DNA from: Acidimicrobiia bacterium
GTDB taxonomy: Bacteria; Actinomycetota; Acidimicrobiia; Spongiisociales; UBA11373
DNA: 64,000 nucleotides
Reading direction: 5' to 3'
Assembly (NCBI GenBank): GCA_041551965.1
Contig: JBFELU010000005.1
Span: 188-64,187, forward strand
A program made the translations under genes and the position numbers. The notes beneath the pieces were generated by a model. The model saw nothing but the letters and a program-made list of their open reading frames with translations, was not told the DNA's origin and did no database searches. How positions within the stretch are numbered: position 1 is the stretch's first letter; each line of letters starts with the position of its first letter. Of the stretch, positions 16,114 through 62,286 are shown piece after piece.

Positions 16114-16117
16114 CGCG

Positions 16118-16240: not shown

Positions 16241-16281
16241 CAGGGGCCAATAGTACCGGTGCCGGCGAGCCCGAGAGCCGA

Positions 16282-35753: not shown

Positions 35754-35759
35754 GGCAGA

Positions 35760-38315: not shown

Positions 38316-38783
38316 TTACCAGCCGGTCTGCACGAAGCCGGGGGGCGGGTTGTCGGTGGCGGGGCAGTCGCCGGCGAAGGCGCCGGTGCCGTAGTACGTG
38401 CCGTTGGCGGCGGACTCCCACACCGCGAAGGTGTTGCCCGAATCGGCGGTCCGGGCGATACACACCACGTCGGAGTCGGCGACGTTCAGGTCGATGTACA
38501 CGCCCAGCGCCGGATCGGCGTTGATCACGGCATTCGGCTCGAGCTCCAGGATCTCGAGGCCGTCCTCTGTGTAGTCGCCCTCTTCCAGCCAGTACGCCTT
38601 CTCGGAGAGGAGCACATTGCGCACCTCGCTCTGGGCGGCGCGGTCTTGAGCGGACTTCCTGAAGCCGAGGAACGAAGGAATGGCAATGGCGATGAGAACT
38701 GCAATGATCATCACCACGACCATCAACTCGATGAGCGTGAAGCCCTCGTCCTTGGCCAAGCCCTTGCGGATGGCCTTCATCAT
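38316..38783 (-). CDS. pilA: major type IVa pilin
   Basis: MMKAIRKGLAKDEG|FTLIELMVVVMIIAVLIAIAIP canonical T4a prepilin leader and alpha-1 helix; C-terminal Cys pair (C...C); ~155 aa. Strong GGAGG RBS 7 nt upstream of the ATG; TAA stop. Confidence 0.9.
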   Translation of the reverse strand: MMKAIRKGLAKDEGFTLIELMVVVMIIAVLIAIAIPSFLGFRKSAQDRAAQSEVRNVLLSEKAYWLEEGDYTEDGLEILELEPNAVINADPALGVYIDLNVADSDVVCIARTADSGNTFAVWESAANGTYYGTGAFAGDCPATDNPPPGFVQTGW

Positions 38784-41667: not shown

Positions 41668-43337
41668 ACGACCACCCTCAACACTTCCTTGAACGTGGTG
41701 AGTCCGAGACGCACCTTCTCCATGCCGTCCTGACGCAGGGTCCTCATGCCCTGTTCGACGGCAACCGCCTTGATTTCGTCCGAGGGCCGGCGTTCGACAG
41801 CCAAACGCTGGATCTCCTCGGAGACCAGAAGCACTTCGTTGATGCTGAGCCGCCCCCGGTAGCCGGTTTCGGAGCAGGCCTTGCATCCGACCGCGTCGAA
41901 GACGGTGATCCGTTCATCCTCGGGAAGCCCCATCTCGTGGAGCATCTCTGGGGTGGCGTCCCGTTGCTGACGGCAGCGATCGCAGATACGTCGAGCCAGC
42001 CGTTGGGCCACGATCGAGTCGAGCGCCGATGACACCAGGTACGGTTCGACGCCCATGTCGATGAGCCGCCCCACGCTCGACGCGGCGTCATTGGTGTGCA
42101 ACGTCGACAGCACCAGGTGACCGGTGAGGGCCGCCTCCACGGCGATCTTGGCGGTCTCGGTGTCCCGGACCTCACCGATGAGCACGATGTCGGGATCGGA
42201 TCGAAGGATCGACTTGAGGGCGGTGGAGAACAACAGCCCCGCCTTGCGATGGACCTGCACCTGGATGACGCCGGGGAGCCGGTACTCCACGGGATCCTCG
42301 ACGGTGATGATGTTCCTGTCGGGCTGGTTGAGGACGTTCAGGGTCGAGTAGAGGGTGGTGGTCTTGCCCGACCCGGTCGGCCCGGTGACCAAGATGGCGC
42401 CGTAGGGCTTCGAGTAGGACGACTCGAAGCGCTCCAGCGACTGCGGCAGGAATCCGAGATCGGACAACTTGAGGATCGCGTCGTCCTTGTCGAGGATCCG
42501 GATCACGACCTTCTCGCCGTAGATGGTCGGCAACGTGGCGACGCGCAGATCGATTTGGCGACCCCCGACCCGGAGACTCACCCGACCGTCCTGAGGGACC
42601 CGTCGTTCGGCGATATTGAGCTCGGCCATGATCTTGAGGCGGCTCACCACCGCACCCGACACTGACCGCGGCGTCGTCATCACCTCTTTGAGGACGCCGT
42701 CGATCCGGAATCGCACCCTCAGATCGCGCTCGCCCGGCTCGACGTGGATATCGCTCGCCCGCTCATTCACGGCTCGGGTGACCAGCGTGTTGACGAGCCT
42801 GACGATTGGGGCTTCCTCGACCGCAGCTTCCAGGCCCTCGAGCGGGTCCTCCTCGGCATCCTCGGTGACCAGGTCGGCGAGATCGGCGACGGAGTTGTCG
42901 AGCGCGCCGACCCGCCTGATTGCATCCTCGATGTCCGACCGACTCGCCATCTTGGGCACCACCGTCTGTCCGGTGATGGCCCTGATGTCATCGACGATGA
43001 GGACGTTGCGGGGGTCGGCCATCGCCACGATCAGACGTTCGTCTTCGAAACCGACCGGGATGACCATGTAGCGCCTCGCGAGCGTTTCGGGGATCAACGC
43101 GGCGGCAGAGGGGTCGAGGGTCATCTCCGAGAGGTTCACGAATTCGATCCCCACGTGCCTGGCCAACACACGGGTGACGTCGTCCTCGGGGATGATCTCT
43201 TCCTCGATGAGGATCCGGGAGAGGGTTTCGCCGGTCTGAGCCTGCACCGCCTGGGCGCGCTCGAGATCGGCCTGGGTCACCAGACCCTCGTCGAGCAACA
43301 TCGTCCCGAACACGTCACCGCTTGGGGGCACGGACAC
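41664..43337 (-). CDS. pilB: type IV pilus assembly ATPase PilB (GspE family)
   Basis: N-terminal GspII/MshEN domain (FGTMLLDEGLVTQADLERAQAV; MADPRNV), Walker A GPTGSGKTT, tetracysteine zinc motif CDRC...CKAC. GTG start preceded by GAAGGAG. Confidence 0.9.
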   Translation of the reverse strand: MSVPPSGDVFGTMLLDEGLVTQADLERAQAVQAQTGETLSRILIEEEIIPEDDVTRVLARHVGIEFVNLSEMTLDPSAAALIPETLARRYMVIPVGFEDERLIVAMADPRNVLIVDDIRAITGQTVVPKMASRSDIEDAIRRVGALDNSVADLADLVTEDAEEDPLEGLEAAVEEAPIVRLVNTLVTRAVNERASDIHVEPGERDLRVRFRIDGVLKEVMTTPRSVSGAVVSRLKIMAELNIAERRVPQDGRVSLRVGGRQIDLRVATLPTIYGEKVVIRILDKDDAILKLSDLGFLPQSLERFESSYSKPYGAILVTGPTGSGKTTTLYSTLNVLNQPDRNIITVEDPVEYRLPGVIQVQVHRKAGLLFSTALKSILRSDPDIVLIGEVRDTETAKIAVEAALTGHLVLSTLHTNDAASSVGRLIDMGVEPYLVSSALDSIVAQRLARRICDRCRQQRDATPEMLHEMGLPEDERITVFDAVGCKACSETGYRGRLSINEVLLVSEEIQRLAVERRPSDEIKAVAVEQGMRTLRQDGMEKVRLGLTTFKEVLRVVV

Positions 43338-48385: not shown

Positions 48386-49729
48386 TCACTCCCCTCGCGG
48401 GGGTCGCCCCAGCCGCCGGTCGATCTCGATCAGTCTTTTTGCCATTTCGGCCTCGTCGCCCTCCGCGCCGGGCCGGTAGAGGATGCGGCCGGCCGCAGCG
48501 TCGGGGAGATACTGCTGTGACACCAGGCCGCCCGGGTGGTCGTGGGGATACCGGTAGCCCTCCCCGTGACCCAGGGCCGCCGCTCCCGGGTAGCCGCCGG
48601 AGCGGAGATGGGGCGGCACCACGGCCTCCGGAGTCTCCTCGAGGGCGCGACGAGCAGCACCGATCGTTTGCAGCACCGAGTTCGATTTCGGCGCGGCCGC
48701 CAGGTAGAGGGCGGCATGGTGGAGTGCATAGGACGCCTCGGGGAGGCCCACGTAGGCCAGCGCCCGTGCCGCATCGACGGCCACCGACAGGGCCCCCGAG
48801 TCGGCGAGACCGATGTCCTCCGAAGCCAGGATGACCATGCGGCGGGCGATGAACTCGGGATCCTCCCCGGCGTCGATCATCAGCTGCAACCAGTAGGCGG
48901 CCGCATCGGGATCCGAGCCCCGGATGCTCTTGATGAACGCCGAGATCACGTCGTAGTGCTGGTCGCCCTTCTTGTCGTAGCGGATGATGCGACGCTGCAG
49001 GGCCTCCTCCACGGTGGGCGGGTCGATCGTGTCGTCGCCCCGGCCCTCGGTGATGAGGGCGGCCAGTTCCAGGGCGTTGTAGGCGAGACGGGCGTCCCCA
49101 CCGGTGCGGGTGGCCAGCACCGCCGCGGCCTCGGGATCCAACCGGAGCCCTGAACCGCCCAGGCCCCGATCGGCGTCGGTCATGGCACGGTCGATGAGCA
49201 CCGCCACCGCCTCGGGCGAGAGTGCTTCGAGACGGAAGAGGCTGCTGCGGCTGATGAGCGGCGAGTTGACCTCGAAGAAGGGGTTCTCGGTGGTGGCCCC
49301 CACCAGGATCACGATCCCCGTCTCCACCCCGGGAAGCAGGGCATCTTGCTGGGCCTTGGTGAAACGGTGGATCTCGTCGAGGAAGAGCACCGTTCGCCGT
49401 TCGTCCTCCTCGAGCCGGCGGGTCGCCGCCGCCAACACCTCGCGCACGTCCTTCACCCCGGCAGAGGTGGCCGACAGCGCCTCGAAGGCCGCCTCGGTCT
49501 CGCTGGCGACCAACCGGGCGAGGGTGGTCTTCCCGGTGCCCGGCGGGCCCCACAGGATCATCGAGACCGGCCTGCCTGCGGCCACCATCGAGGCGAAGGC
49601 CGAGCCGGGCGCAACGAGATGCGGCTGCCCGACTACCTCCGACAACGAGGCGGGTCGCATGCGGGCGGCCAGCGGCTCGGCCGACTTCCGGCGGGCGGCG
49701 CGATCCGCGGCGAAGAGATCGTCCATCAT
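48386..49729 (-). CDS. rarA: replication-associated recombination protein A (AAA+ ATPase RarA/MgsA)
   Basis: Walker A GPPGTGKTT, Walker B LFLDEIHRF, and MgsA C-terminal domains. Start at MMDDLF (ATG 49727-49729) overlaps the aspS stop; the longer track N-terminus is rejected. Confidence 0.85.
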   Translation of the reverse strand: MMDDLFAADRAARRKSAEPLAARMRPASLSEVVGQPHLVAPGSAFASMVAAGRPVSMILWGPPGTGKTTLARLVASETEAAFEALSATSAGVKDVREVLAAATRRLEEDERRTVLFLDEIHRFTKAQQDALLPGVETGIVILVGATTENPFFEVNSPLISRSSLFRLEALSPEAVAVLIDRAMTDADRGLGGSGLRLDPEAAAVLATRTGGDARLAYNALELAALITEGRGDDTIDPPTVEEALQRRIIRYDKKGDQHYDVISAFIKSIRGSDPDAAAYWLQLMIDAGEDPEFIARRMVILASEDIGLADSGALSVAVDAARALAYVGLPEASYALHHAALYLAAAPKSNSVLQTIGAARRALEETPEAVVPPHLRSGGYPGAAALGHGEGYRYPHDHPGGLVSQQYLPDAAAGRILYRPGAEGDEAEMAKRLIEIDRRLGRPPRGE

Positions 49730-51519
49730 TCCCGAGAGCCGCGATCCTCCTCGAGCGCGGCGCGCACCTCGGGACGCAGATCGAGACCCAGCTCCCGCAG
49801 TTGGTCGTCGCCGACCGGGGTCGGGGATTCGGTGAGCGGATCGGTGCCGGTCTGCGTCTTGGGAAATGGGATCACCTCCCGGATGTTGGGCTCGTCCTGG
49901 AGGATCGAGACGAGCCGATCGATCCCGACCGCAAAGCCGGCGTGTGGGGGCGTCCCGTACCGAAGTGCTCGAAGGAACCATCCGAATCGCTGCTCCGCCT
50001 CCTCGTCGCTGATACCGAGCACGGTGAAGACCCGGCGCTGGGTGTCGGAGTCGTGGATCCGGACGCTCCCGGAGCCGAGTTCGGCGCCGTTGAGGACCAG
50101 GTCGTAGGCCTTCGAGATGGCGGTCTCGGGGCTCTCCTCCATCTCGGTGATGTCGACCGGTGCGGTGAAGGGGTGGTGGGCCGGGGCCAGGCGCCCGTCG
50201 GGCATCTTCTCGAACACGGGAAAGTCGGTCACCCACAGGAATCGCAGCTCGTCGTGGCCCCCCGGTTGGCCCAGGTGGCGCCGCAGATCGTCGAGGACTC
50301 CGCCGGCGACCCGCGCTCGATCAGCCACGATCACCAGCAGGTCGCCGGGCGCAGCGTCGAGGGTCGATCGGATCCCGGCGATCTCGGCGTCGGAGAGGAA
50401 CTTGGCGACCGGGGATCGCAAGGAGCCGTCGTCCTCGGCCACCGCCCAGACCAGGCCCTTGGCCCCCGATCCTCGAGCGCGCTCGACGAGCCCATCGAGC
50501 CCCGCCCGCGACAAGCCTTGATCACCCGCATTGAATCCGCGCACGACGCCCCCGTCGGCCAGCACGCCGGCGAAGGCCTGGAACCCCGTTTCGGCGAGGA
50601 CCTCGCCGAGGTCGGCGAACGCCATGCCGAATCGAACATCGGGCTTGTCGGTGCCGTAGGAGGCCATGGCCTCGGCGTAGGTGAGCCGGGGGAACGGTGT
50701 CGGGATCTCGACGCCCTTCAGTTCCCGAACTACCTCGGCCATGACGCCCTCGAGCGCCTCGAAGACGTCGTCCTGGCCCCAGAAGGCCCCCTCGAGGTCC
50801 AACTGGGTGAACTCGACCTGCCGATCCGCTCGGAAGTCCTCATCCCGGTAGCAGCGGGCGATCTGGTAGTAACGCTCCACCCCGGCGACCATCAACAGCT
50901 GTTTGAAGAGCTGGGGCGACTGGGGCAGGGCGTAGAACGATCCCTGGCGGAGGCGGCTCGGTACCAGGAAGTCTCGGGCTCCTTCCGGCGTCGATTTGAT
51001 GAGCGTGGGCGTCTCGATCTCCAGGAAGCCCTGGGATTCCATGGACCGCCGCATGGCGGTGACGGCCCGGGATCGGGCCCGAAGGTTCGTGGCCATCCGG
51101 GGACGCCTCAGATCCAGGTAGCGGTAGGCGAGCCGGCGCACCTCGTCGACCTCGGCGCGGTCGTCGATCTGGAAGGGGAGCGCGACAGCCGCGCTCAGGA
51201 GCTTCATGTCGGAAGCCACCACTTCGACCCCCCCGGTGGCCATCTCGGGGTTGACGTTGTCGGGATCCCGCTCGCGCACCGTGCCGGTCACCGCGATGCA
51301 GTACTCGTCGCGCAGCCGGTGGGCCAGGTCGTCGAGACCCGGAGCCTCATCCGGCCGGACCACCACCTGCACGATGCCGCTCGCATCGCGAAGATCGACG
51401 AACACCACCCCGCCGTGGTCACGCCGTGTGTTGACCCAGCCGGCAACCCGAACCGAACGCCCGACGTCGGCGGTCCGCAGCGCGCCGGCCGCATCGGTCC
51501 TCAGGGGCTCGTCGCCCAT
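49726..51519 (-). CDS. aspS: aspartyl-tRNA synthetase
   Basis: OB-fold anticodon-binding domain (VRVAGWVNTRRDHGG), class II catalytic core and GAD insertion; 597 aa. Confidence 0.9.
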   Translation of the reverse strand: MGDEPLRTDAAGALRTADVGRSVRVAGWVNTRRDHGGVVFVDLRDASGIVQVVVRPDEAPGLDDLAHRLRDEYCIAVTGTVRERDPDNVNPEMATGGVEVVASDMKLLSAAVALPFQIDDRAEVDEVRRLAYRYLDLRRPRMATNLRARSRAVTAMRRSMESQGFLEIETPTLIKSTPEGARDFLVPSRLRQGSFYALPQSPQLFKQLLMVAGVERYYQIARCYRDEDFRADRQVEFTQLDLEGAFWGQDDVFEALEGVMAEVVRELKGVEIPTPFPRLTYAEAMASYGTDKPDVRFGMAFADLGEVLAETGFQAFAGVLADGGVVRGFNAGDQGLSRAGLDGLVERARGSGAKGLVWAVAEDDGSLRSPVAKFLSDAEIAGIRSTLDAAPGDLLVIVADRARVAGGVLDDLRRHLGQPGGHDELRFLWVTDFPVFEKMPDGRLAPAHHPFTAPVDITEMEESPETAISKAYDLVLNGAELGSGSVRIHDSDTQRRVFTVLGISDEEAEQRFGWFLRALRYGTPPHAGFAVGIDRLVSILQDEPNIREVIPFPKTQTGTDPLTESPTPVGDDQLRELGLDLRPEVRAALEEDRGSRE

Positions 51520-52727
51520 GCCGCCACCTCCTCGATGGGGATCTGCTCGTCATCGCCGCCCGCCAAGCGGCGAACCGTCACCATGCCTTCGTTCCACTCC
51601 TCCCCGACCACGGCCACCCCCCGCGCTCCCCGCCGATCGGCGGCCTTGAACTGGGCTCGCAGCGACCGCTCTCCGAGGTCGAGGTCGGCCCGCACGCCGG
51701 CGGCCCGCAACGAGGAAACCAGGTTCAGCGCCTCGGCCCGGAGTCCCTCGACGGCGACCGTCACGAACAGGTCGAGATCGTCTCCCCCGACCTCGGGCAT
51801 CGCCGCCGTGATCCGGTCGACACCCATGGCGAGACCGACCGCCGGAACGGCCTTGCCGCCGATGATCTCGGCGAGCGGGTCGTAACGCCCCCCTCCCCCG
51901 AGGGAATCCTGGGCGGCGTCGTAGGTCGCCGCCACGTACTCGAACACCGTCCGGTTGTAGTAGTCGAGTCCTCGCACCAGACGGGGTGCGATCTCGTAGG
52001 CGATGCCGCGCCGTTCCAGCCCGGCCCGAACCGCGATGAAGTGCGCCGCGGCCGCTTCGCCGAGATGATCGATCGGGGCCGGGGCATCGGCGACCACCTC
52101 GGCATCGGCCTTGCTGTCGAGGACCCGCAGGGGATTGGTGCCCACCCGGCGGCGGGCATCGGGCGACAGCCGGTCGATGCGCTCGGTCAAGAACGCCGCC
52201 AGCAGGTCGCGGTAGGCGGTCCGGTCGGCCGGATCCCCGATCGAGTTGAGCAGCACGGTCACGTCCGTGATGCCCACCCTGTCGAGGAGCCGATACCCGA
52301 AGTCGATCACCTCGACGTCGGCGTCGGGCGACGGCTCGGCCAGGTACTCCACGCCGACCTGGAAGAACTGGCGGCGCCGACCGGCCTGCGGCTGTTCGTA
52401 CCGGAACATCGGGCCGGCATACGCCCCCTTGAAGACCCCTTGGCCCCCCTCCTGGAGGTAGGCCCGCACCACCGAGGCGGTCGCCTCGGGGCGCAGGGTG
52501 AGGGAGCGGTCGCCCTTGTCGGTGAAGGTGTACATCTGCTTCTCGACGACCTCGGTTTCCTCCCCGACGCCCCTGGCGAACAGTTCGGTGGCCTCGAAGA
52601 CGGGGGTCAGGGTGAGCCCGTAGCCCCACTGCTCGGCCATCTCGTCGAACACGCGCAGCAGCGCCCGCCACCGTCTCGAGGCGGGAGGGAGGATGTCGTC
52701 GGTGCCCTTGGGGGCGCGAGGGATCAT
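51501..52727 (-). CDS. hisS: histidyl-tRNA synthetase
   Basis: Class IIa motifs and anticodon-binding domain; 408 aa. Confidence 0.9.
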   Translation of the reverse strand: MIPRAPKGTDDILPPASRRWRALLRVFDEMAEQWGYGLTLTPVFEATELFARGVGEETEVVEKQMYTFTDKGDRSLTLRPEATASVVRAYLQEGGQGVFKGAYAGPMFRYEQPQAGRRRQFFQVGVEYLAEPSPDADVEVIDFGYRLLDRVGITDVTVLLNSIGDPADRTAYRDLLAAFLTERIDRLSPDARRRVGTNPLRVLDSKADAEVVADAPAPIDHLGEAAAAHFIAVRAGLERRGIAYEIAPRLVRGLDYYNRTVFEYVAATYDAAQDSLGGGGRYDPLAEIIGGKAVPAVGLAMGVDRITAAMPEVGGDDLDLFVTVAVEGLRAEALNLVSSLRAAGVRADLDLGERSLRAQFKAADRRGARGVAVVGEEWNEGMVTVRRLAGGDDEQIPIEEVAAWATSP

Positions 52728-53374
52728 GATCGGAATACCTGGAGGAAGGGGTTGGCCGCCAGCTCCCGGGCGATGGTAGTGGCCGGCCCGTGGCCGGGAA
52801 AGACGTCGGCTTCGGGGGGGAGCCCGATGATGTGCCGCTCCATCGAGTGCATCAAGGTCTCGAAGTCACCGCCCGGCAGGTCGGTGCGCCCGATCGATCC
52901 GGCGAACAGCTGATCTCCGCTGAACAGGACACCCTCGGAGGGCACCCAGAAGCAGCAGTGGCCCGGGGTGTGACCCGGAGTGTGGAGCACTTCGATGTCC
53001 AACCCGGCCGACTCCAACCGCTGCCCGTCGGCGAGCGCCTCGTAGCGGTCCGGCGGGGCGTAGTCGCCGGGGAAGGCCATCCCGAAGAGCATCCGCATCT
53101 GTCCCTCCGGGTCCATGGCGAGGTAGTCGTCGTCCGGATGGAGGTAGGCGCTGATGGCATAGCGGGCGACCACCGCCCCGGCCCCGCCGACGTGGTCGAT
53201 GTGGCCGTGAGTGGCCAGCAGCGCAACCGGGGTGACACCGGACCGGCGCACCAGGTCGGCGACGGCTCCGGGATCCGGCGGAGCGTCGACGATGATCGCC
53301 TCACCACCCGGCTCGGTGGCGACGACGTAGGTGTTGGTGGCGGCCGCCCACAGGGCGGCGGCGAACATCTGCAC
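52724..53374 (-). CDS. MBL-fold metallo-hydrolase (glyoxalase II-like)
   Basis: HGHIDHVGG and HTPGHTPGH zinc-binding motifs; 216 aa. Confidence 0.8.
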   Translation of the reverse strand: MQMFAAALWAAATNTYVVATEPGGEAIIVDAPPDPGAVADLVRRSGVTPVALLATHGHIDHVGGAGAVVARYAISAYLHPDDDYLAMDPEGQMRMLFGMAFPGDYAPPDRYEALADGQRLESAGLDIEVLHTPGHTPGHCCFWVPSEGVLFSGDQLFAGSIGRTDLPGGDFETLMHSMERHIIGLPPEADVFPGHGPATTIARELAANPFLQVFRS

Positions 53375-53398: not shown

Positions 53399-54793
53399 CT
53401 AGAGCTCGGCCCAGTCCACGACGATCGGGACGTCCTGAGTGGCTCGAAACGGGCTGGGCACCGGGCCACTGTTGTCCACGGTCGGGTTGCCGCTCCAGTC
53501 GGACTCGTGGACGTAGTCCTCGGCGCTGTCGCAGGAATCCCCGATGATGAAGGCTCCTTCGACGATGCTGCTGGCGCCGTTGATCTTGAGTTGCTCCTGC
53601 ACGGCCATGATGCCGGAGAGATCCGGGTTCCCCGAGATCTCGAGATCCCGGTCGACGCCCAGGAGCAAGTTGCGGGTGTTGGGATAGGGCACCATGGTCG
53701 GATTGCCGCTGATGCTCAGGTCGCCCCCGACCTTGTCCGGACAGGTACCCGACCCGGCGACCAACAAGGTGACCTGCCAAGGAGCACCCACCGATCCCGG
53801 GGAGGCCCCGATCGTCACCGATCCCTCGTGGAAGTAATAGACGCCGTCGAAGGGAATGTCGTTGTCGTAGACCCACTTCGCGCCAAGCCTCGAATCGCAG
53901 CATCCGTTGTACTTCCAGCTGCGGAACGGCGAGGTCTGCGTATCGGTGTCGAGGGTGGCTCCCGAACATGGCACGCTGGTCACCGTGCCGCCCATCGTCG
54001 GGTGAGCCGGGCCGGCACGCACCCGGCCATCGGGACACATGTCGTACTCACTGAGCGACCACAGCGATCGAATGTCGATGATCGGAAGCAGAACCGTCGC
54101 CTGCCCACCGGGCATTGCGCACCCGGGCGCCTGCGAGTAGGAACCGGAAACCGACACTGCGCCCGAGGCGCTGATGCAACTTTGGATGAAGCTGCTGCCT
54201 CCAATGGAGAGGTCGCCGTTTGCATGGATGCCGACCGAAGAGCCGCTGGCCACGGTGGGGTTTCCCTTGAAGGCGAGATTCCCGCCCGAAAGCACGGCGT
54301 AGGCGGCGTTCCACCCGCCCACCTCCGACGACAGCCCGATCCGCCCCCTCACCGCCCTGACCCGGCGGTCCGGCGCCGACCGGGTGGGGACGTAGCCGAC
54401 CGAGTACACGACCTCACTGTTGAACGGCCGGATGACCATGAACTCGCCGCCCGGCACCTGCCCCAGGTCGGAGGGCGAGCGAGCATCCGCGGCCGCCACC
54501 ACCCATTTCCGCTCGGTGTCCGAATCCGGGAAGGGGTGAGGCGCCGTCTCGCCCGTCGTGTACGACTCGTCGGCGTTGGCGAGATCCAGGCCGACGTCCA
54601 GGCCTGCTTCGGCAACCGCCAGGGTGAGCTCCCACTCCGAATCGACGTGGACACTCTGTGACTGGACCAGGGACCGAAACGCCACCACCGACGTGAGGAG
54701 AATGAGAGAGAAGCCGAGCAGCAGCACCGTGGCGACGGCGATCCCTCGCTCGTCCCGAATGACCCGCCGAATGGCCTTCCCCGAGGGTTTCAT
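53399..54793 (-). CDS. large Cys-rich membrane-anchored extracellular protein with TadG-like N-terminus (module B, gene 3)
   Basis: N-terminal RDERG plus hydrophobic anchor (IAVATVLLLGFSLILL) with no Glu at +5. Repeated SGNPT motifs and 10 Cys. Paralog of 56775-58151 (shared VGYVPTR, DxRSxWxxSEYDxCPxGRVxAGPxHPT, C-terminal VPxVxxWxEL). ATGA-coupled to the upstream gene. Confidence 0.6.
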   Translation of the reverse strand: MKPSGKAIRRVIRDERGIAVATVLLLGFSLILLTSVVAFRSLVQSQSVHVDSEWELTLAVAEAGLDVGLDLANADESYTTGETAPHPFPDSDTERKWVVAAADARSPSDLGQVPGGEFMVIRPFNSEVVYSVGYVPTRSAPDRRVRAVRGRIGLSSEVGGWNAAYAVLSGGNLAFKGNPTVASGSSVGIHANGDLSIGGSSFIQSCISASGAVSVSGSYSQAPGCAMPGGQATVLLPIIDIRSLWSLSEYDMCPDGRVRAGPAHPTMGGTVTSVPCSGATLDTDTQTSPFRSWKYNGCCDSRLGAKWVYDNDIPFDGVYYFHEGSVTIGASPGSVGAPWQVTLLVAGSGTCPDKVGGDLSISGNPTMVPYPNTRNLLLGVDRDLEISGNPDLSGIMAVQEQLKINGASSIVEGAFIIGDSCDSAEDYVHESDWSGNPTVDNSGPVPSPFRATQDVPIVVDWAEL

Positions 54794-55326
54794 GGCATGT
54801 TCCTGAGCGAGACGTCGAATTCCATGGATCGATCACCACCCCCGTCCACCGCCACGGGAGATTCCAGGCGGATGGTTGCCGTCCGAATGTCCTGAGGCGA
54901 CGACGAGCTGTACGTGAAACCCGAGGCCGCCGGATCGAGACCGCCGACCACCGTCACGCTGCCGCCGTTGTCGGTCAGGCGGGCCAGCGAGCCGTCATCG
55001 AGGAGCGCCCAGGACACTCGTTCACCGGTGTCCTGGATCCCATCCCAATCTGCGTCGAGCCACACGGTCATGGTGAGCGGCGACGCCACCACGAAACCCC
55101 GGGCCTCGCGAACATCCCGGGTGATCCTCTGCCTCACCTGCCGCAGCGTGACCAGCGCCGCGTCATCGGCTTCATGGAGGCGATCCACTCGGGTCACCCC
55201 GACGAAGAAGGTAGTGAGCATGGTGGCGATCACCGCCAGCCCGGCCAACGAGATCCCGAGCTCCACGAGGGTCATGCCGCCGTCTCCCGACGGCGCCAGC
55301 CTCCTCAGCGCGGCGATGCGCCTCAT
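54790..55326 (-). CDS. TadE-like pseudopilin / prepilin-type protein (module B, gene 2)
   Basis: Leader ...SGDGG|MTLVELGISLAGLAVIA with Glu at +5. Paralog of 58148-58705 (shared DVREARxF and terminal DVSLRNxP). ATG at 55324-55326 overlaps the upstream stop. Confidence 0.6.
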   Translation of the reverse strand: MRRIAALRRLAPSGDGGMTLVELGISLAGLAVIATMLTTFFVGVTRVDRLHEADDAALVTLRQVRQRITRDVREARGFVVASPLTMTVWLDADWDGIQDTGERVSWALLDDGSLARLTDNGGSVTVVGGLDPAASGFTYSSSSPQDIRTATIRLESPVAVDGGGDRSMEFDVSLRNMP

Positions 55327-56723
55327 GAGCACACCGACCCCACCGCTTCCGGCTGGAGACCTTGGAGGATCTGCGAGGCCGGCAGCAGGTTGGCCGGGTA
55401 TTCCACCCAGGAACCGCCGCTGAACTCGACTGTGCCGAGATTTCCCTCACCACCCGCGATGATCGCCCCATGCCAGGCCGCGCCCCCCGAGAGGAGGACT
55501 CCCCCGTATGGTGCGTAGGCCACCCCCTGGGCGTACCCCACGCTGCTCCCCGTCAATTTGAGCGCCGTGTCGGTGACACCGAACGAGATAGCTCCACCGG
55601 AGGTGGGGGACTCGGACCCGTAGTCGGTCACGATGTACTCGGTGCCGCCACTGAACTCGATCAGCACATCGGAGACGAAGAATGCGGCGTCGGTCGTGAC
55701 GGTCGGACCCCCCTGGAGCTTGAGTGAACCGGTGGCGTAGATTGGTCCGGAGCCGTTGATGGTGACGTTCCCTTCCACCACGAGGGAGCCTTCGATGTAG
55801 ATGGGGGCCGTGACGGTGGTGTCCTTGAACCGCTGATTGCCGTAGAGGATGGTTCCCGCCCTCGCCTGGTCCCGAAGATCGGCCCGCCAAACCTCGATCT
55901 CCTCAGTGGTGGGCAGGTCCACCGGTGTGCCGGCGTTCTGCTCCAAGATCCCGTGCACGTTGTCGGAATTGACGCTTGCGGTACCCCCGACGATCAGATT
56001 GCCGTCGACGGTGGCATCGTTGTTTCCGAAATTCCCGTTGGCGAGCACGTCGGCGGCATGGGTCCCCGAGGGCGTGCTGATGGTGTAGCCGGGATGCAGA
56101 TCGATATCTCCCGCCGCCATGATCGCAGCATCCGGGAAAGCCGATCCGGCAGTGGCGGAGGCGGTTCCGGCCGAGATGGTGGAGATCAAGGTTCCGGTGT
56201 GATAGGTGCGCGTTCCGACTTCCCCGTTCCACTCGACGAGGACGTACACCCTCCTCAGGGTCGCCGAAGGCTGAGTCACGTAGGTCCACGTCGTGAACTG
56301 GATGTCCTGGATGGTGGCGTCGACTCGGGGCGCAAGCACCCCACTCTCACAGGTGCGCAGGCTCTCATCGGCGGGAAGGCCGGTGGGTTCCGCCAATAGG
56401 ACCTCGCGGTCTGAATCGATGAGCGGCGCATCCGGGTCGATCTCGCTCAACGCCAGCCCCTCCCAACCGAGGCTTCGGGCGAGTTCGAGTCGTTCCAGAC
56501 CGAGACCGGTCGCTTCCTGGCGGAACCGGTTCTCCCTCGACCCACTCAGCGCACCACGGAGCGTGCCCGAGAAGGCGAGCACCAACATCATGGCCAGCAG
56601 CACCGCCACCGAAAGCTCCACGAGGCCGAACCCGGCCTCGGCGGTCGGCGGGACGGGGTGTCTTCGCACCCCCAACCGACGGCCGACGCCTGCTTCGTTG
56701 GGGACGCCATTGGGTCCGCTCAT
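55323..56723 (-). CDS. large prepilin-like protein with Gly/Val/Thr-rich repetitive C-terminal region (module B, gene 1)
   Basis: Prepilin motif AEAG|FGLVELSVAVLLAMMLV (Glu at +5), then a ~400-aa region of repeats (GSLVVEGNVTINGSGPIYATGSLKLQGG...). Paralog of 58702-60024. Start ambiguous among in-frame ATGs at 56771, 56741 and 56723; 56723 is preferred because GGTGGAAG lies upstream. Confidence 0.55.
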   Translation of the reverse strand: MSGPNGVPNEAGVGRRLGVRRHPVPPTAEAGFGLVELSVAVLLAMMLVLAFSGTLRGALSGSRENRFRQEATGLGLERLELARSLGWEGLALSEIDPDAPLIDSDREVLLAEPTGLPADESLRTCESGVLAPRVDATIQDIQFTTWTYVTQPSATLRRVYVLVEWNGEVGTRTYHTGTLISTISAGTASATAGSAFPDAAIMAAGDIDLHPGYTISTPSGTHAADVLANGNFGNNDATVDGNLIVGGTASVNSDNVHGILEQNAGTPVDLPTTEEIEVWRADLRDQARAGTILYGNQRFKDTTVTAPIYIEGSLVVEGNVTINGSGPIYATGSLKLQGGPTVTTDAAFFVSDVLIEFSGGTEYIVTDYGSESPTSGGAISFGVTDTALKLTGSSVGYAQGVAYAPYGGVLLSGGAAWHGAIIAGGEGNLGTVEFSGGSWVEYPANLLPASQILQGLQPEAVGSVCS

Positions 56724-56774
56724 GCTTCCACCGTCGACCATTATCTGTAGTGACTTGACTACTTTCCGCATTCT

Positions 56775-58151
56775 CTACAGTTCCCCCCAGGCCATCACCA
56801 CCGGGACCGTGTTGGACCCGGCGAACGGTGAGGCGATCGGCCCGCTGTTGCTGATGGTGGCGTTCCCCGAGATGTCGGTGACGTCGACCCAGTCGTTGGA
56901 GGAGTCGCAGGCCCCCTCCGCCAGCCAGGCGGTCTCCACCCCCTCCGGATGGCCGATGTTGCGAATCTGCTCGTGGACGGCGACGATCCCGGTGAGGTTG
57001 GGGCCGCCGGAGATCTCGAGATCCCGTCCGACGGCGATCAAGAGATTCTGGGCGTCGGGATCGGGCGCCATCGACGGGCTGCCGCTGATCTCCACGTCTC
57101 CACCGACGATCTCGGGGCAGGCGCCGATCCCCTCGGTGACGATCGTCACCTCCCAGGGATCGGCCGGCGACCCCGGGCTCGACGCCAGGTCGACCGACCC
57201 CTGATAGACGTAGTAGACGCCGTCGTAGGCGGCCTGACTCACGTAGCGCCAGTCGGCGCCCAGCTTGGCGTCGTAGCCGTCCCAGATCCATCCGTGGTAG
57301 GGGGTGAGGGCGGCGTCGACCTCCAGGGTCGACCCGGTGCACGGTGTGTTGCCCACGGTGTGACCGTGGGTGGGATGGGATGGCCCCGCCTTGACCCGCC
57401 CTCCGGGGCACAGGTCGTACTCACTGCGCACCCAGAACGAGCGCACGTCGACGACGGGGACCTCGACCGGAGCCTGGATGCCGGGGGCGCCACAGCCGGG
57501 GTCCTGGGCGATGGAACCGGTCACGTTGGCCCCGTCGGAGGCGCTGAGACACCCGTCCACGAACAAGTTGCCCCGTACGTCGAGGAACCCGTTGGCGTGC
57601 ACGCCGACGGTGGCCCCGCTGATGATGGTGGGGTTGCCGCCCATCTCCAGCTGGTCACCTGCGAGCAGCGCATAGCGGGCCAGCCAACTCCCGTTGATGG
57701 TGGCGTCGCCGATGCGGGCTCCCACCACCCGGACCCGGCGAGTCTCGGCGGCCCGGGTGGGCACGTACCCGACGGCGAAAACCATCTCGGTGTTGCTGGG
57801 CCGCACGACCACGTACTCCCCCAGCGGCGTCGTCCGCAGGTCGATCGACCCGCGAGCATCGGCGGCCGCCACCATCCAGACCCGGGCATCCTCGTTGCCG
57901 GCGAACGAGTCGGGAAGGACCTCGCCGGTCGTGAAAGCATCGTCCTCGGCGACCGCCACCAGGCCCTCGTCGAGGCCAGACTCGGCCACTTGGAGCGCCT
58001 GTTCCCACCCGGCGTCGGACAACGTGGTGTTCGACTGGCGCAGCGACCGCACCACCACCACCGACGAGAGCATCACGATCGACAAACCGAGGATGAGCAC
58101 CGCCGCCACCGCCAACCCCCGTTCGCCGCGCAGCAGGTGCCGCAGTCTCAT
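56775..58151 (-). CDS. large Cys-rich membrane-anchored extracellular protein with TadG-like N-terminus (module A, gene 3)
   Basis: Start MRLRHLLRGERGLAVAAVLILGLSIVML at ATG 58149-58151, overlapping the upstream stop. Paralog of 53399-54793; the track's longer N-terminal extension is rejected. Confidence 0.6.
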   Translation of the reverse strand: MRLRHLLRGERGLAVAAVLILGLSIVMLSSVVVVRSLRQSNTTLSDAGWEQALQVAESGLDEGLVAVAEDDAFTTGEVLPDSFAGNEDARVWMVAAADARGSIDLRTTPLGEYVVVRPSNTEMVFAVGYVPTRAAETRRVRVVGARIGDATINGSWLARYALLAGDQLEMGGNPTIISGATVGVHANGFLDVRGNLFVDGCLSASDGANVTGSIAQDPGCGAPGIQAPVEVPVVDVRSFWVRSEYDLCPGGRVKAGPSHPTHGHTVGNTPCTGSTLEVDAALTPYHGWIWDGYDAKLGADWRYVSQAAYDGVYYVYQGSVDLASSPGSPADPWEVTIVTEGIGACPEIVGGDVEISGSPSMAPDPDAQNLLIAVGRDLEISGGPNLTGIVAVHEQIRNIGHPEGVETAWLAEGACDSSNDWVDVTDISGNATISNSGPIASPFAGSNTVPVVMAWGEL

Positions 58152-58705
58152 GGGACGTTCCTCAGAGAGACCTCGGTATCGAGGGTTCGGGTCCCACCCA
58201 CCCCGGCGGCATCGTCGACCGCCGCCACCAGGTGGACGTCGATCATGGTGGCGTAATCGGGGTGGGTGCTGTCGTAGGAGAAGGCAGACAGGTCGACCAG
58301 CAACCCCTGGGCCTCGAGGCGGTTGGCACCGTCGGTCGACCGGAAGAGGGCGCCGTCGGTGTTGATCCCCCACGTGACCAACTCGCCGACATCGATCACG
58401 TCGTCCCATTGCTCGTCGATCCACACCGTGAATCCGAACCGACCGATGGCGGTGAAGCGGCGGGCCTCCCGCACATCCCGGCTCAATCGCGCTCTTGCGT
58501 CGCGAATCTGCTCGAGGGCCGTGTCGTCGGCCTTGTGGAGATCCTCGACGGCGGTGGCGCTCACGAAGAAGGACATCATGGTCATCGAGATGATCCCCAG
58601 TCCGACCATGGCGATGCCCAGCTCCACCACCGTCGCCCCGGTCTCGTCACGACGCCACCGGGCGCAGCACCGCCTCGCCGCCCGGAGAAGGACCCGCCCG
58701 ATCAT
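58148..58705 (-). CDS. TadE-like pseudopilin (module A, gene 2)
   Basis: Leader MIGRVLLRAARRCCARWRRDETG|ATVVELGIAMV matches the TadE/TadF RRDERG-AxxVEF-type N-terminus with Glu at +5. ATG at 58703-58705 overlaps the upstream stop. Confidence 0.6.
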   Translation of the reverse strand: MIGRVLLRAARRCCARWRRDETGATVVELGIAMVGLGIISMTMMSFFVSATAVEDLHKADDTALEQIRDARARLSRDVREARRFTAIGRFGFTVWIDEQWDDVIDVGELVTWGINTDGALFRSTDGANRLEAQGLLVDLSAFSYDSTHPDYATMIDVHLVAAVDDAAGVGGTRTLDTEVSLRNVP

Positions 58706-60024
58706 CCGCAGGGGCTCTCCGAAACGGTGGGCCGCAGCCCGTTGAACAGCGTGGTGGTGGGGACGAGGTTGGCCGGGTAGTCGACCCAGGCACCGCCCCC
58801 CATGTCGACGTCGCCGCTTCCGTCCCCCATGGCGACGAGGGCCCCGTGCCACGGCAGGGTGCCGGTGAGTTGGATGCCGCCGTAGGGGGCGAAGGCGACG
58901 CCCTGCGCGGTGGCCGGCGCTCCTCCCACGAGCTTGATGGCGATGTTGGACGAGCTCAACGAGATCACCCCGGCAGACCCGAGCTCACCGACGTGGAGTT
59001 GGCTCCCCGACCGGAAGTCGACCTGTCCTTCGGCGACCAGGCGGGCCGCCGCCGACGTCACCGAGGCTCCGGTCTCGAGCACGATCGAACCGGTGGCGTA
59101 GAGGGGACCGGACCCCGCGATCGTGACGTTCCCGGCAAAGGCCACGCTCCCGTCGACGTAGAGCGGGGCGGTGACGGTCGTCTCGGTGAAGACCTGATTC
59201 CCGATCAGCGAAGCGCCGGCCTGAGCGTCGGCGACCATCCCCGCCTCCCAGGCGCTCAGGGTCGCCTGATCCGGGACGTTGACCGGTGACCCGGCGTTCT
59301 GCTCGATGTTTCCATGGACGTTGGCGGGGTTGACCGTCACCGTCCCCCCGGCCACGATGCTCCCGTCGACCACCGCATCGAGGTTGGAGAAGCTGGCGTT
59401 GAGCCAGATCGAGGCGCTGTGGGCCGTGGTCGGGTTGCTCGAGGTATAACCCGGGTACAAAGCCACGTTGCCGGTGGCCAGGATCGCCCCTTCGGGGAAT
59501 ATCGGCTGTTCGATCGCTTCGGCGCCGCGAGCCGAGACGATCGAGACCAGGGAATCGGACCGGTAGTGATAGGAGCTCCCCTCGATCTCCCACGCCACCA
59601 GCACGTAGACCCGGCGAAGGGAGTCGCTCACGTGGGTGACGTAGGTCCTCGTGGTGAAGGGAACCTGCCCGACCGTCTCCGTGGTGACCGGGGCCAGGAT
59701 CCCCGTCGGGCACTCGAGCACCGCCTCGTCCTCGTCCAGGCCGCTCACCGAAGCCGGGAGCACCCCGTCGGTGATCCACGGGTCCTGCGGATCGATGCCC
59801 GCCATCGCCAGTTGATCCCACTCCAGGCTCCGCGCATGCTCGAACGTCGCCATGGCAACCGCAGTCGCCTCTTGACGGAATCGATTCATGCGAGAGCCGG
59901 TGAGGGCGCTCCGGAGTGAGCTGCTGGCGGCGACCATGATGATCACCGCGATCACCATGGCCACGCTCAGCTCGACCAGCGTGAAGCCCTCTTCACCCGA
60001 CCGGCGGGTTGCCGCGTTGAACAC
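58702..60024 (-). CDS. large prepilin-like protein with Gly/Val/Thr-rich repetitive C-terminal region (module A, gene 1)
   Basis: MFNAATRRSGEEG|FTLVELSVAMVIAVIIMV canonical prepilin cleavage/methylation motif; repeats (GSVAFAGNVTIAGSGPLYATGSIVLETG...); 440 aa. GTG start preceded by AGGGGG. Confidence 0.65.
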   Translation of the reverse strand: MFNAATRRSGEEGFTLVELSVAMVIAVIIMVAASSSLRSALTGSRMNRFRQEATAVAMATFEHARSLEWDQLAMAGIDPQDPWITDGVLPASVSGLDEDEAVLECPTGILAPVTTETVGQVPFTTRTYVTHVSDSLRRVYVLVAWEIEGSSYHYRSDSLVSIVSARGAEAIEQPIFPEGAILATGNVALYPGYTSSNPTTAHSASIWLNASFSNLDAVVDGSIVAGGTVTVNPANVHGNIEQNAGSPVNVPDQATLSAWEAGMVADAQAGASLIGNQVFTETTVTAPLYVDGSVAFAGNVTIAGSGPLYATGSIVLETGASVTSAAARLVAEGQVDFRSGSQLHVGELGSAGVISLSSSNIAIKLVGGAPATAQGVAFAPYGGIQLTGTLPWHGALVAMGDGSGDVDMGGGAWVDYPANLVPTTTLFNGLRPTVSESPCG

Positions 60025-60105: not shown

Positions 60106-62286
60106 TCAGGGGGCGGCCAACCGGTAGGCGTCGTAGACGCCCTCCACGGCCTGCAACTCCGAGATCGCCCGCTCCAACTGGTCGGTGTCGGAGAGTTCCA
60201 TTTCGAATCGGAGTATGGCGATGCGATCCCGGCCGGTTGCCGACGACGACGCCACGATGTTGACGCCGAGGTCGCCGAGGACATCGGTGATGTCGCGCAG
60301 CAATCGAGGCCGATCCAATGCCTCCAGTTGCAGCCAAGTGGCGAACACCGCCCGCCGGTCGGTTCCCCACGACACGTCGATCATTCGCTCGCGTCGCTCC
60401 TCCAATGCCCCCACGTTGGTGCAGTCGGCGCGGTGGACCGACACCCCGTGACCCAGCGTCACGAAGCCGACGATCGGATCGCCGGGCACCGGGGCGCAGC
60501 ATCTGGCGATCCGGGTGGTGATGTCGTCGAAGCCCTCCACCACGACACCCCGTGACGGAGCGGCGGCCCGCACCCGGGGCGGGGCCAGCAGGTCCTCGTC
60601 GTCTGCTTCTTCGATGTCGGGAGGACGGACCAACCGGATCAGCCGCCCCACCACCGTCTGCGGCTGCGCGTTGCCGTCGCCGACCGCCACGTACAGCGAG
60701 TCCACGTCCTGGTATCCGAACGATTCGGCGACCTGGGTGAGCGCCCGATCCCGCTTGGAGGCGGTCAGCCCCAGCCCTTCCCGGCGCAGCAGCTTGGCCA
60801 CCTGGTCGCGTCCCTCCGTGAGGGCATTGTCGCGACGCTCCCTGCTGAACCACTGGCGGATCTTCGAGGAGGCCCGGCTGGTCCGCACGAATCCGAGCCA
60901 ATCGCGGCTCGGGCCGGCCGACTCCGCCCGCGACGTCAGCACCTCGACGATGTCGCCCGACTCGAGAGTCGTGTCGAGGGGCTTGAGGCGGCCGTTCACC
61001 TTGGCCCCGACACAACGGTGGCCCACCTCGGTGTGCACCGAGTAGGCGAAATCGATGGGCGTCGCCCCCCGGGGCAGGGTCTTGACGTCGCCGGCCGGGG
61101 TGAGGACGAAGACCTCGTTCTGATAGAGATCGAGCTTCAATCCGGCCAGGAAGTCCTCGGGACGGTCGTACTCCTCGGGCAGCCCGGCGATCTGGCGAAC
61201 CCCTTCGACCTCCGGCGGACCGCCCCCCTCCTTGTAACGCCAGTGCGCGGCGATGCCCCGCTCCGCCCGCTCGTGCATCTCGGCGGTCCTGATCTGCACC
61301 TCGAGGGGCCGCCCATCGGGGCCGAGCACCGTGGTGTGCAGGCTCTGGTACAGGTTGAACTTGGGCATCGCGATGAAGTCCTTGAAGCGCCCCTGGACCG
61401 GGGGCCACCGAGTGTGGATCACCCCCAGCGCCGCGTAGCAGGCGGCGACGGCCCCGGTGATGATGCGGATGCCGAGGAGATCGTGGATATCGGAGAACGG
61501 ACGACCGGCATCGACCATCTTGCGGTAGATCGAGTACGGGTGCTTGGGCCGGCCGCTCACGAGGGCCTTGATGTCGTGGTCGGTCAGCAGGCCCTCGACC
61601 TCGGCGATGACCTTCTCCAGGTAGGCGTCGCGGGCCGGTGCCCGGACCTGGACCAGTTCCTCGATCTCGGCGTATCGACGCTGGTGGAGGATCGCAAAGC
61701 AGCGATCCTCCATCTCGTGCTTGATCTCCTGGACCCCGAGCCGGTGAGCCAGGGGCGCATAGACCTCGATGGTCTCCCGGGCAATCCGCTCCTGCTTCTC
61801 CGGAGCCAGAGCCGAGAGCGTTCTGACGTTGTGCAACCGGTCGACCAATTTGATGAGCAGCACCCGCACGTCCTTGGCCATGGCCACGACCATCTTCCGA
61901 ATCGTGGCCGCCTGGGCCTCCTCTCGATTGCCGAACTTGACCCGGTCCAGCTTGGTGACCCCGTCGATCAGAGCCGCGACCTCGTCGCCGAACTCGCTCC
62001 TCACGTCGTCCAGCGTGAGATCGGTGTCCTCGACCGTATCGTGGAGCAGCGCAGCCGCCACCGTCGAGCCGTCGAGTCCGTAGCCGGCGAGGATGTGGGC
62101 CACCGCCAGGGGGTGGGTGATGTAGGGATGGCCACTCTTGCGGAACTGGCCGGAGTGGCGGGCGGCGGCGATCTCATAGGCCCTGTGGATCAGTCGATCC
62201 GAGGCATCGCTGTGATGATCGCGATAGGCGGCGAGAACGGGACCCAACTCGGCGATCACCGCATCGTCGGGTCGCACGGTGGTCAC
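60106..62286 (-). CDS. rel: bifunctional (p)ppGpp synthetase/hydrolase
   Basis: HD hydrolase domain (HSGQFRKSGHPYITHPLAVA...LHDTVEDT), synthetase, TGS and ACT domains; 726 aa. Confidence 0.95.
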   Translation of the reverse strand: MTTVRPDDAVIAELGPVLAAYRDHHSDASDRLIHRAYEIAAARHSGQFRKSGHPYITHPLAVAHILAGYGLDGSTVAAALLHDTVEDTDLTLDDVRSEFGDEVAALIDGVTKLDRVKFGNREEAQAATIRKMVVAMAKDVRVLLIKLVDRLHNVRTLSALAPEKQERIARETIEVYAPLAHRLGVQEIKHEMEDRCFAILHQRRYAEIEELVQVRAPARDAYLEKVIAEVEGLLTDHDIKALVSGRPKHPYSIYRKMVDAGRPFSDIHDLLGIRIITGAVAACYAALGVIHTRWPPVQGRFKDFIAMPKFNLYQSLHTTVLGPDGRPLEVQIRTAEMHERAERGIAAHWRYKEGGGPPEVEGVRQIAGLPEEYDRPEDFLAGLKLDLYQNEVFVLTPAGDVKTLPRGATPIDFAYSVHTEVGHRCVGAKVNGRLKPLDTTLESGDIVEVLTSRAESAGPSRDWLGFVRTSRASSKIRQWFSRERRDNALTEGRDQVAKLLRREGLGLTASKRDRALTQVAESFGYQDVDSLYVAVGDGNAQPQTVVGRLIRLVRPPDIEEADDEDLLAPPRVRAAAPSRGVVVEGFDDITTRIARCCAPVPGDPIVGFVTLGHGVSVHRADCTNVGALEERRERMIDVSWGTDRRAVFATWLQLEALDRPRLLRDITDVLGDLGVNIVASSSATGRDRIAILRFEMELSDTDQLERAISELQAVEGVYDAYRLAAP

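Follow-up and report, generated by a model that had tools for sequence, protein, structure and literature searches.

Tandem cassettes of prepilin-type proteins with a predicted beta-solenoid domain in an uncultured Acidimicrobiia bacterium

In Thermus thermophilus, the GspK-like tip pilin ComZ carries an ice-binding-protein-like beta-solenoid inserted before its last strand; ComZ binds the pilin PilA2 as well as DNA, and it was argued to sit at the pilus tip and to serve as a receptor there (PMC6561018). The absence of Glu+5 is a hallmark of ComZ and of the other GspK/PilX-type caps (PMC6561018). In cyanobacteria, all PilX homologues were reported to carry a beta-solenoid, which was proposed to substitute for PilY1 (bioRxiv 10.64898/2026.02.12.705559), and modular pilins more generally are widespread and tip-exposed (PMC8179133). 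Here we describe a locus with related proteins in a 64,000-nt stretch of an Acidimicrobiia bacterium (GenBank assembly GCA_041551965.1, contig JBFELU010000005.1, positions 188 to 64,187 of the forward strand; hereafter the window), which encodes prepilin-type proteins in two consecutive three-gene cassettes, A1-B1-C1 and A2-B2-C2.

Solenoid pilins as such are already known, through ComZ (2019), the cyanobacterial PilX and HpsA proteins (2026 preprint), the modular-pilin concept and the Pfam model DUF7305. The C1 and C2 proteins of our locus fit the ComZ/PilX kind, whereas A1 and A2, though they would work in a similar way, fail two of its defining features, as they keep Glu+5 and carry the solenoid appended behind a full pilin head rather than inserted. 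A sequence-only reading of the window had considered the two A proteins an unusual architecture. The solenoid-bearing pilin is supported, and it is less unusual than supposed, given the precedents of ComZ (PMC6561018), cyanobacterial PilX (bioRxiv 10.64898/2026.02.12.705559), modular pilins (PMC8179133) and DUF7305. That reading had also overlooked the two paralogous cassettes headed by these genes, the ComZ-like solenoid pilin encoded third in each, and the pilus machinery of the window. Overall, what it had observed was confirmed in part and its interpretation is partly supported.

A duplicated cassette of three prepilin-type genes

The A, B and C proteins of the two cassettes are all paralogous (A1/A2 47% and C1/C2 51% identical over full length, B1/B2 43%), and the region is therefore a tandem duplication of a three-gene cassette, with A1 and A2 heading one cassette each (Table 1). 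Divergence between the paralogues is even, with every module ~45-57% identical; we did not see module-specific divergence, nor any sign of the solenoid evolving faster than the pilin module. At 4/4 intra-cassette junctions the start and stop codons overlap as ATGA, the usual sign of translational coupling, by which each A-B-C cassette appears to be coupled. The A1 and A2 genes are real, on the basis of a GC3 of 0.79-0.87 across the genes, the recurrence of the same length series (440/185/458/472/178/464 aa) in independent gene calls on two metagenome contigs, and the presence of orthologues in seven genome species. The 472 aa in this series are the JGI gene call for A2, which has alternative upstream ATGs at 56741 or 56771; the choice affects only the leader. 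A scan of the locus for promoters and terminators was uninformative.

As the sequence-only reading had indicated, the two A genes are open reading frames (ORFs) with prepilin motifs, of 440 and 466 aa, and their products are ~3 times as long as the ordinary pilins in the window (155 and 149 aa), at the lower end of the 3-4 times it had given. The analysis supports A1 and A2 as prepilin-type subunits that carry a beta-solenoid-like domain. The motif reads GFTLVEL in A1 and GFGLVEL in A2, and Gly-1, Phe+1 and Glu+5 are present in 18/18 sequences of the A family; the leader of A1 is predicted to be cut after Gly13. A1 passes the cut-offs of both Pfam N_methyl (PF07963; 25.2 bits, cut-off 21.2) and TIGR02532 (22.1 bits, cut-off 16.3), whereas A2 stays under the Pfam threshold (10.6 bits) though the motif is present.

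The AlphaFold2 model of A1 was computed on a family alignment of 19 sequences (mean pLDDT 85.1, pTM 0.63); in it, an alpha1 helix (residues 16-66) is followed by a pilin head (~67-165) of four strands (113-118, 121-131, 136-147 and 150-161) and by a low-confidence linker (166-172) between the head and the beta domain. The best-placed pilin among the Foldseek matches of this part in the PDB was the Thermus competence pilin TT_C0855 (PilA2, 6qvf), at a weak E of 0.2 (prob 0.77). The head could not be classified as PilV, PilW, FimU or GspH/I/J, with only the generic N-terminal helix motif matched, and NCBIfam otherwise gave only sub-threshold N-terminal matches. The A proteins thus have the features of type IV prepilins, namely the leader with Gly-1 and Glu+5, the helix and beta head as modelled for A1, and a cognate PilD and pilus machinery in the window.

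The extra domain of A1 is best described, from its model, as an irregular beta-solenoid of the ice-binding-protein type without sequence repeats. Residues 178-420 were modelled as ~25 short strands, mostly at pLDDT >90; after them a short helix (420-423) leads into a tail that contains no strand and ends at Cys439, the last 10 residues having a pLDDT of 58. The top PDB fold match was a fungal antifreeze beta-helix (3vn3; Foldseek E 8.7e-3, prob 0.98, TM 0.40) and the top match in a viral library was a DUF3494 protein (E 4.5e-3, TM 0.28), so that the weak matches of the two libraries agree in pointing to DUF3494-type, ice-binding folds. This resemblance is structural only, as neither A1 nor A2 matched DUF3494 in Pfam at E <=1. 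A comparison of the A-family profile with PDB sequences returned chance-level matches.

The confident model and its beta-helix fold matches support the proposal of a beta-solenoid-like domain, but not the picture of a ~400-aa, Gly/Val/Thr-rich region of degenerate 20-25-residue repeats that had accompanied it. The domain spans ~245 aa and comes after the linker and a pilin head of ~100 residues, whose strands fall within 100-161. The C-terminal 270 residues of A1 (171-440) are not of low complexity, and their composition (Ala 14%, Gly 14%, Val 10%, Ser 9%, Thr 8%), with Ala and Gly highest, shows just a slight bias for a genome of 68% G+C. No repeats emerged from BLASTP self-comparison, from autocorrelation of the family profile (maximum z 2.6 over 52 offsets, which is chance level) or from hhalign between four segments of the domain (probability <=12%). 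The peptide strings that had been quoted as examples are present, but they align with each other as one segment shared by the two paralogues (A1 292-319 = A2 312-339) and are not repeats within one protein. The suggested kinship with bactofilins was not borne out either: PF04519 reached 14.3 bits (E 0.051) against a cut-off of 27.9, with no stretch passing alone, and bactofilins were absent from the fold matches. Families of the pectate-lyase type gave no Pfam match at E <=1 and, for A1, only Foldseek matches at E >1, and the sortase motif LP.[TSA]G does not occur in any of the six cassette proteins.

A1 contains only two cysteines (105 and 439), both invariant in 19 sequences, and A2 likewise has two, at the equivalent positions. 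This pattern suggests that a Cys105-Cys439 disulfide probably staples the A1 C-terminus to the pilin head. In addition, the A family has invariant polar motifs (EQNAG-PV-P at 241-251, APYGG at 379-383 and W392), and H393, directly after the invariant tryptophan, is conserved in 17/19 sequences.

The partner proteins are pilin-like as well. In the B family Gly-1 and Glu+5 are invariant (11/11), while no Pfam family beyond the N-terminal motif was matched and an assignment to PilV, PilW, FimU or GspH/I/J could not be made. The C family has Gly-1 in 33/33 sequences and Glu at +5 in 0/38. In the AlphaFold2 model of C1 (pLDDT 90.4) the pilin head is followed by a large beta-solenoid and the chain closes with a long strand (439-457), and the model matched ComZ (6qvi_A) in Foldseek at E 6.2e-9 (prob 1.00) and a sequence identity of 11-12%, followed by several DUF3494 ice-binding proteins (TM up to 0.48). 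By its predicted structure, C1 is thus a structural homologue of the Thermus tip pilin. C1 contains 6 cysteines and C2 contains 8, of which three (C248, C271 and C415 of C1) do not vary among 38 members of the family, a pattern that suggests several disulfides in this ComZ-like solenoid protein.

The system of ComZ (strain HB27, PDB 6QVI; partner PilA2, 6QVF) resembles our locus in joining a pilin-like part to a large solenoid, which in ComZ is triangular and of the ice-binding-protein type, in being encoded beside small minor pilins and in its proposed tip position, and C1 and C2 match ComZ directly. A1 and A2 differ from it in several respects: Glu+5 is kept in them and absent in ComZ; the A1 solenoid, as judged from the order of secondary structure, comes after a complete pilin head, whereas that of ComZ is inserted before the last strand; their solenoids are shorter (~245 aa, as compared with ~380 aa); and ComZ is not among the top 50 PDB fold matches of A1. 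The ComZ system also has one solenoid-bearing subunit where our cassettes have two each, and the host here is a single-membrane bacterium.

The cyanobacterial PilX systems (PilX-Com and PilX-EPS/HpsA) are core sets of minor pilins, one member of which has a solenoid resembling ice-binding proteins as a proposed tip plug in place of PilY1, with several alternative sets per genome, each priming a different filament (bioRxiv 10.64898/2026.02.12.705559). The cassettes here differ in consisting of three genes and in that a subunit with Glu+5 bears a solenoid too, joined on at its C-terminal end. This arrangement of a small pilin module, a short linker and a bulky C-terminal module is akin to that of the Streptococcus sanguinis proteins PilB (vWA) and PilC (lectin), likewise from a single-membrane bacterium and with a proposed role at the tip in adhesion (PMC8179133), but the module in our case is a predicted DUF7305 beta-solenoid rather than a vWA or lectin domain. 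From most DUF7305 relatives the A proteins differ in turn, as these carry the domain on a PilX-like N-terminus without Glu+5. GspI-GspJ-GspK of the type II secretion system (T2SS) are similarly three co-encoded pilin-like proteins, the largest of which lacks Glu+5 and caps the filament; however, we found no sequence-level membership in these families, the GspK insertion is alpha-helical and not a solenoid, and neither a secretin nor an outer membrane is expected here.

Domain family and conservation of the locus

Transitive and profile searches show the C-terminal domains of A1 and A2 to be homologues of Pfam DUF7305 (PF23981). A1 itself scored 21.7 bits (E 2e-4) and A2 16.5 bits (E 8e-3) on this model, which has a gathering threshold of 27 bits, whereas 40/49 sampled solenoid relatives retrieved with the A profile matched it (best E 9e-19) and four orthologues (P0003, P0007, P0011 and P0012) carry precomputed PF23981 matches. 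A literature search for DUF7305 or PF23981 found no papers.

A word-indexed search returned only 18 relatives, all from uncultured Actinomycetota or metagenomes, and an exhaustive profile search with the A family returned 1333 proteins. Examining the best 150 representatives of the latter revealed a modular family, with the following architectures: the pilin module alone (58, mostly ~165-190 aa), the solenoid on an N-terminus without Glu+5 that resembles PilX/GspK (54), the pilin module with another C-terminal domain (27), and the A architecture of pilin module plus solenoid (4). The PilX-like N-terminus of the second group shares homology with the N-terminal region of C1 and C2 (e.g., in P0027), and a sequence profile of the DUF7305 relatives matched ComZ at E 7.6e-5. 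When the A-family profile was compared with that of the C family, the only match was a weak one where head and solenoid join (55% probability, E 1.2e-4), and a common origin of the A and C solenoids is possible on these sequence comparisons.

In 7/7 related species that we found, all of them Acidimicrobiia or Actinomycetota metagenome-assembled genomes from mud, saline and groundwater samples, relA is directly followed by an A-B-C cassette, with the genes for a metallo-beta-lactamase-fold protein (MBL), hisS and aspS further downstream. The rest of the relA-hisS interval varies between the related genomes: one locus (L007) has a single cassette, our window has a second copy of the same kind, and another (L006) has a short-A/B/C set.

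In the closest relative (L001; 80-92% protein identity), a shuffled set at 13358-16561 replaces the second cassette and encodes a protein with a C-like N-terminus and two A-like solenoids, then a pilin-only A (~160 aa), then B. As the A-like solenoids of this set are found on a C-like protein, in a locus that is syntenic in other respects, the solenoid appears to move between the subunits of one complex.

The same relA-hisS interval contains, in two other related loci, a third kind of three-gene pilin cassette (L002, 6340-10281; L005, 6190-9978). Its three products are a Glu+5 prepilin of 520-570 aa, which combines an A-like pilin module with other beta domains, a prepilin of ~220-240 aa and a PilX-like protein of ~530 aa; its large proteins end in Cys-Pro, and in L002 a Thr-rich linker comes after the A-like pilin module. 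This cassette stands before A-B-C in L005 and after it in L002, and L003 has an insert of similar size.

Pilus machinery and neighboring genes

A complete set of genes for a type IVa-like pilus is also present in the window, encoded on the strand of the cassettes (Table 1) and comprising a PilB-type ATPase, the platform protein PilC, the peptidase PilD, the alignment subcomplex PilM/PilN/PilO (34333-36863) and two ordinary pilins, the 155-aa one likely being the major pilin. Directly after pilB a second ATPase of the same family is encoded, whose ORF as listed overlaps pilB by ~220 nt, its true start probably lying further downstream. Among the window ORFs scanned we did not recognize a PilT-type retraction ATPase.

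Table 1. Coordinates of the cassette genes, their predicted domains, flanking genes and pilus genes in the window. A slash within a motif stands after Gly-1.
Feature	Coordinates	Strand	Description and basis
relA/spoT	60106-62286	minus	first in gene order, followed by A1
A1	58702-60024	minus	large prepilin, 440 aa; ORF
Predicted beta-solenoid domain of A1	58765-59499	minus	residues 176-420 (~245 aa), one helix 253-268; AlphaFold2, fold matches
B1	58148-58705	minus	small prepilin, 185 aa, ETG/ATVVE; ATG overlaps A1 stop
C1	56775-58151	minus	ComZ/GspK/PilX-like pilin without Glu+5, 458 aa, ERG/LAVAA; ATG overlaps B1 stop
A2	55323-56723	minus	paralogue of A1, 466 aa from the start used in the sequence-only reading, AGFGLVEL
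Predicted beta-solenoid domain of A2	55386-56138	minus	residues ~196-446; aligned to A1 176-420, ~51% identity
B2	54790-55326	minus	small prepilin, 178 aa, DGG/MTLVE; ATG at 55326 overlaps A2 stop
C2	53399-54793	minus	paralogue of C1, 464 aa, ERG/IAVAT, no Glu+5; ATG overlaps B2 stop
MBL	52724-53374	minus	metallo-beta-lactamase-fold protein
ORF taken as hisS	51501-52727	minus	named from reading the translation, not from a domain search; adjoins the MBL gene in all related loci
ORF taken as aspS	49726-51519	minus	named from reading the translation, not from a domain search
PilB-type assembly ATPase	41664-43337	minus	Pfam T2SSE E 1e-140, MshEN
Second T2SSE-family ATPase	40102-41886	minus	directly after pilB; Pfam T2SSE E 4e-47, MshEN
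PilC platform protein	38876-40105	minus	Pfam T2SSF E 5e-69
Ordinary pilin	38316-38783	minus	155 aa, DEG/FTLIEL; Pfam N_methyl, sequence reading
Second ordinary pilin	37797-38246	minus	149 aa, ETG/FAVLEL; motif scan, translation
PilD prepilin peptidase	37039-37803	minus	Pfam A24_N_bact E 5e-34, Peptidase_A24 E 7e-12
PilM	35760-36863	minus	Pfam PilM_2 E 5e-41
PilN	35130-35753	minus	Pfam PilN E 2e-5
PilO	34333-35133	minus	Pfam PilO E 4e-11

Downstream of pilO, on the minus strand at 33755-34336, we noted a protein of 193 aa that has a hydrophobic segment at its N-terminus and contains long Thr/Gly runs (TTTTTGVITTTTGGTTTTTGDGTTTTT). Its sole Pfam match is a weak, low-complexity one to 'New_glue', and it may represent either a PilP-like protein or a glycosylated linker. 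A response-regulator receiver joined to a GGDEF domain (diguanylate cyclase) is encoded on the minus strand at 16282-17211, amid housekeeping genes, and could be relevant to surface behavior.

A candidate pilus-tip complex and its alternatives

We consider it fairly probable that A1 and A2 are modular minor pilins and that each coupled A-B-C cassette builds the tip (priming) complex of a type IV pilus, which would give the organism two alternative tips. A role at the pilus tip or as an adhesin, already raised in the sequence-only reading, is also the most plausible one in our hands. From the observed gene structure, motifs, folds, homology, synteny and pilus machinery we infer the following course of processing and assembly. 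A, B and C would start out as prepilins that PilD cleaves behind the conserved Gly, and would then associate in the membrane through their alpha1 helices into a priming complex, on which the PilB/PilC/PilMNO machine would polymerize the ordinary 155-aa pilin, so that the A-B-C complex would end at the pilus tip. C would be the cap, because it lacks Glu+5 and has a ComZ/GspK-like fold, and B and A, both with Glu+5, would lie beneath it. The tip would then display two rigid beta-solenoids of the ice-binding type, an insert in C and an appendage of A, the C-terminus of A probably being stapled back to the pilin head by the Cys105-Cys439 disulfide. These solenoids would be the part that contacts a ligand, perhaps a surface, polysaccharide or DNA, and that plugs the tip, in the role that PilY1 has elsewhere. 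With the two cassettes 43-51% identical, two alternative tips would result.

Several points weigh against this reading. The formation of the complex, the order of its subunits and its location at the tip are deduced, and the host organism is known from metagenomes only. The cassettes are surrounded by housekeeping genes, at a distance of 13-20 kb from the pilus genes, and are linked to the machine by motif only; PilY1 was found to be absent among those window ORFs that were scanned. The fold matches of the A1 solenoid are weak (E ~5e-3 to 9e-3, TM 0.28-0.40) and the alignment behind its model is shallow, at 19 sequences, while both A1 and A2 remain below the gathering threshold of DUF7305. The disulfide, finally, is argued solely from the invariance of the only two cysteines.

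We ranked four rival explanations below the tip complex. In a special case of it, which we think unlikely, the cassettes would be a DNA receptor for natural transformation, with A-B-C capping a short competence pilus and the solenoids binding extracellular DNA as proposed for ComZ/PilA2. The structural homology of C1 to ComZ and the match of the A1 pilin head to PilA2, the partner of ComZ, would fit such a receptor, as would the DNA binding of ComZ and of ComZ/PilA2 (PMC6561018) and the competence-specific PilX/PilV set of cyanobacteria (bioRxiv 10.64898/2026.02.12.705559). However, at an identity of 11-12% the DNA-binding lysines of ComZ cannot be mapped onto C1, neither comEA nor comEC was found among the window ORFs scanned, and the two or three kinds of cassette per locus fit a diversity of ligands better than a single DNA receptor. 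It is quite unlikely, in our estimate, that the proteins are pseudopilins of a secretion-type or polysaccharide-export filament, a short piston like that of T2SS GspI/J/K or cyanobacterial Hps, with solenoids that engage the exported polymer. The only machinery seen is of the type IVa kind (PilM, PilN, PilO and two ordinary pilins), and Actinobacteria have a single membrane, leaving no outer membrane for secretion to cross. The three-gene layout with a cap that lacks Glu+5 does mirror GspI-GspJ-GspK, GspK is the closest match of the ComZ pilin domain (PMC6561018), and expanded solenoids occur in the PilX-EPS subfamily and in HpsA (bioRxiv 10.64898/2026.02.12.705559); the weak NCBIfam matches to HpsC, HpsB, GspI and GspH reflect the generic N-terminal motif only (16 bits against a cut-off of 200).

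The solenoid mounted on the pilin could also be enzymatic, for instance a lyase or hydrolase of polysaccharides like many right-handed beta-helices, or it could serve as an ice-binding or antifreeze module like DUF3494. The best fold matches are indeed ice-binding or antifreeze beta-helices, the A family has invariant polar motifs, and modular pilins with peptidase modules exist (PMC8179133); yet no DUF3494, pectate lyase or enzyme family was matched in Pfam at E <=1, the lyase matches in Foldseek had E >0.3, ComZ has the same fold without an ice-related role (PMC6561018), and the samples that yielded the related genomes were mud, saline and groundwater ones, all of which makes this explanation very unlikely. 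Finally, it is least likely, in our view, that the proteins are membrane-anchored surface proteins which stay in the membrane and whose N-terminal hydrophobic helix resembles a prepilin by chance. That the cassettes do not adjoin pilus genes and that A2 is under the Pfam N_methyl threshold would agree with such a view, but it is opposed by the invariance of Gly-1, Phe+1 and Glu+5 across the A family, the full pilin head fold in the A1 model, the ~58 stand-alone homologues (~170 aa each) that consist of the pilin module alone, the pilin-like nature of B and C, and the presence of PilD.

Beyond the tip complex itself, a broader and rather doubtful proposal is that the relA-hisS interval is a conserved exchange site for interchangeable tip cassettes of at least three kinds, and that the DUF7305 solenoid, once part of the cap, was transferred to the underlying Glu+5 subunit. 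The two different solenoids, side by side, would then form a two-jawed clamp for a polymer such as DNA or polysaccharide, replacing PilY1 altogether in a single-membrane bacterium.

How type IV pili gain binding functions, and how priming and capping proceed in bacteria without PilY1, are active questions. New in this locus are the solenoid on a second, Glu+5-bearing subunit, which would make two solenoids per presumed tip, the single-membrane host, and the apparent exchange of cassettes at a single conserved site of the chromosome. In practical terms the importance is limited, the organisms being uncultured and the function predicted only. The cassettes extend the solenoid-tip idea of ComZ and PilX to the Actinomycetota and place the same solenoid domain on one or the other of two subunits that probably belong to a single complex. 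The natural series of swappable tip sets at one site (single, duplicated and domain-shuffled) could help to model the structures of such complexes and to find what they bind.

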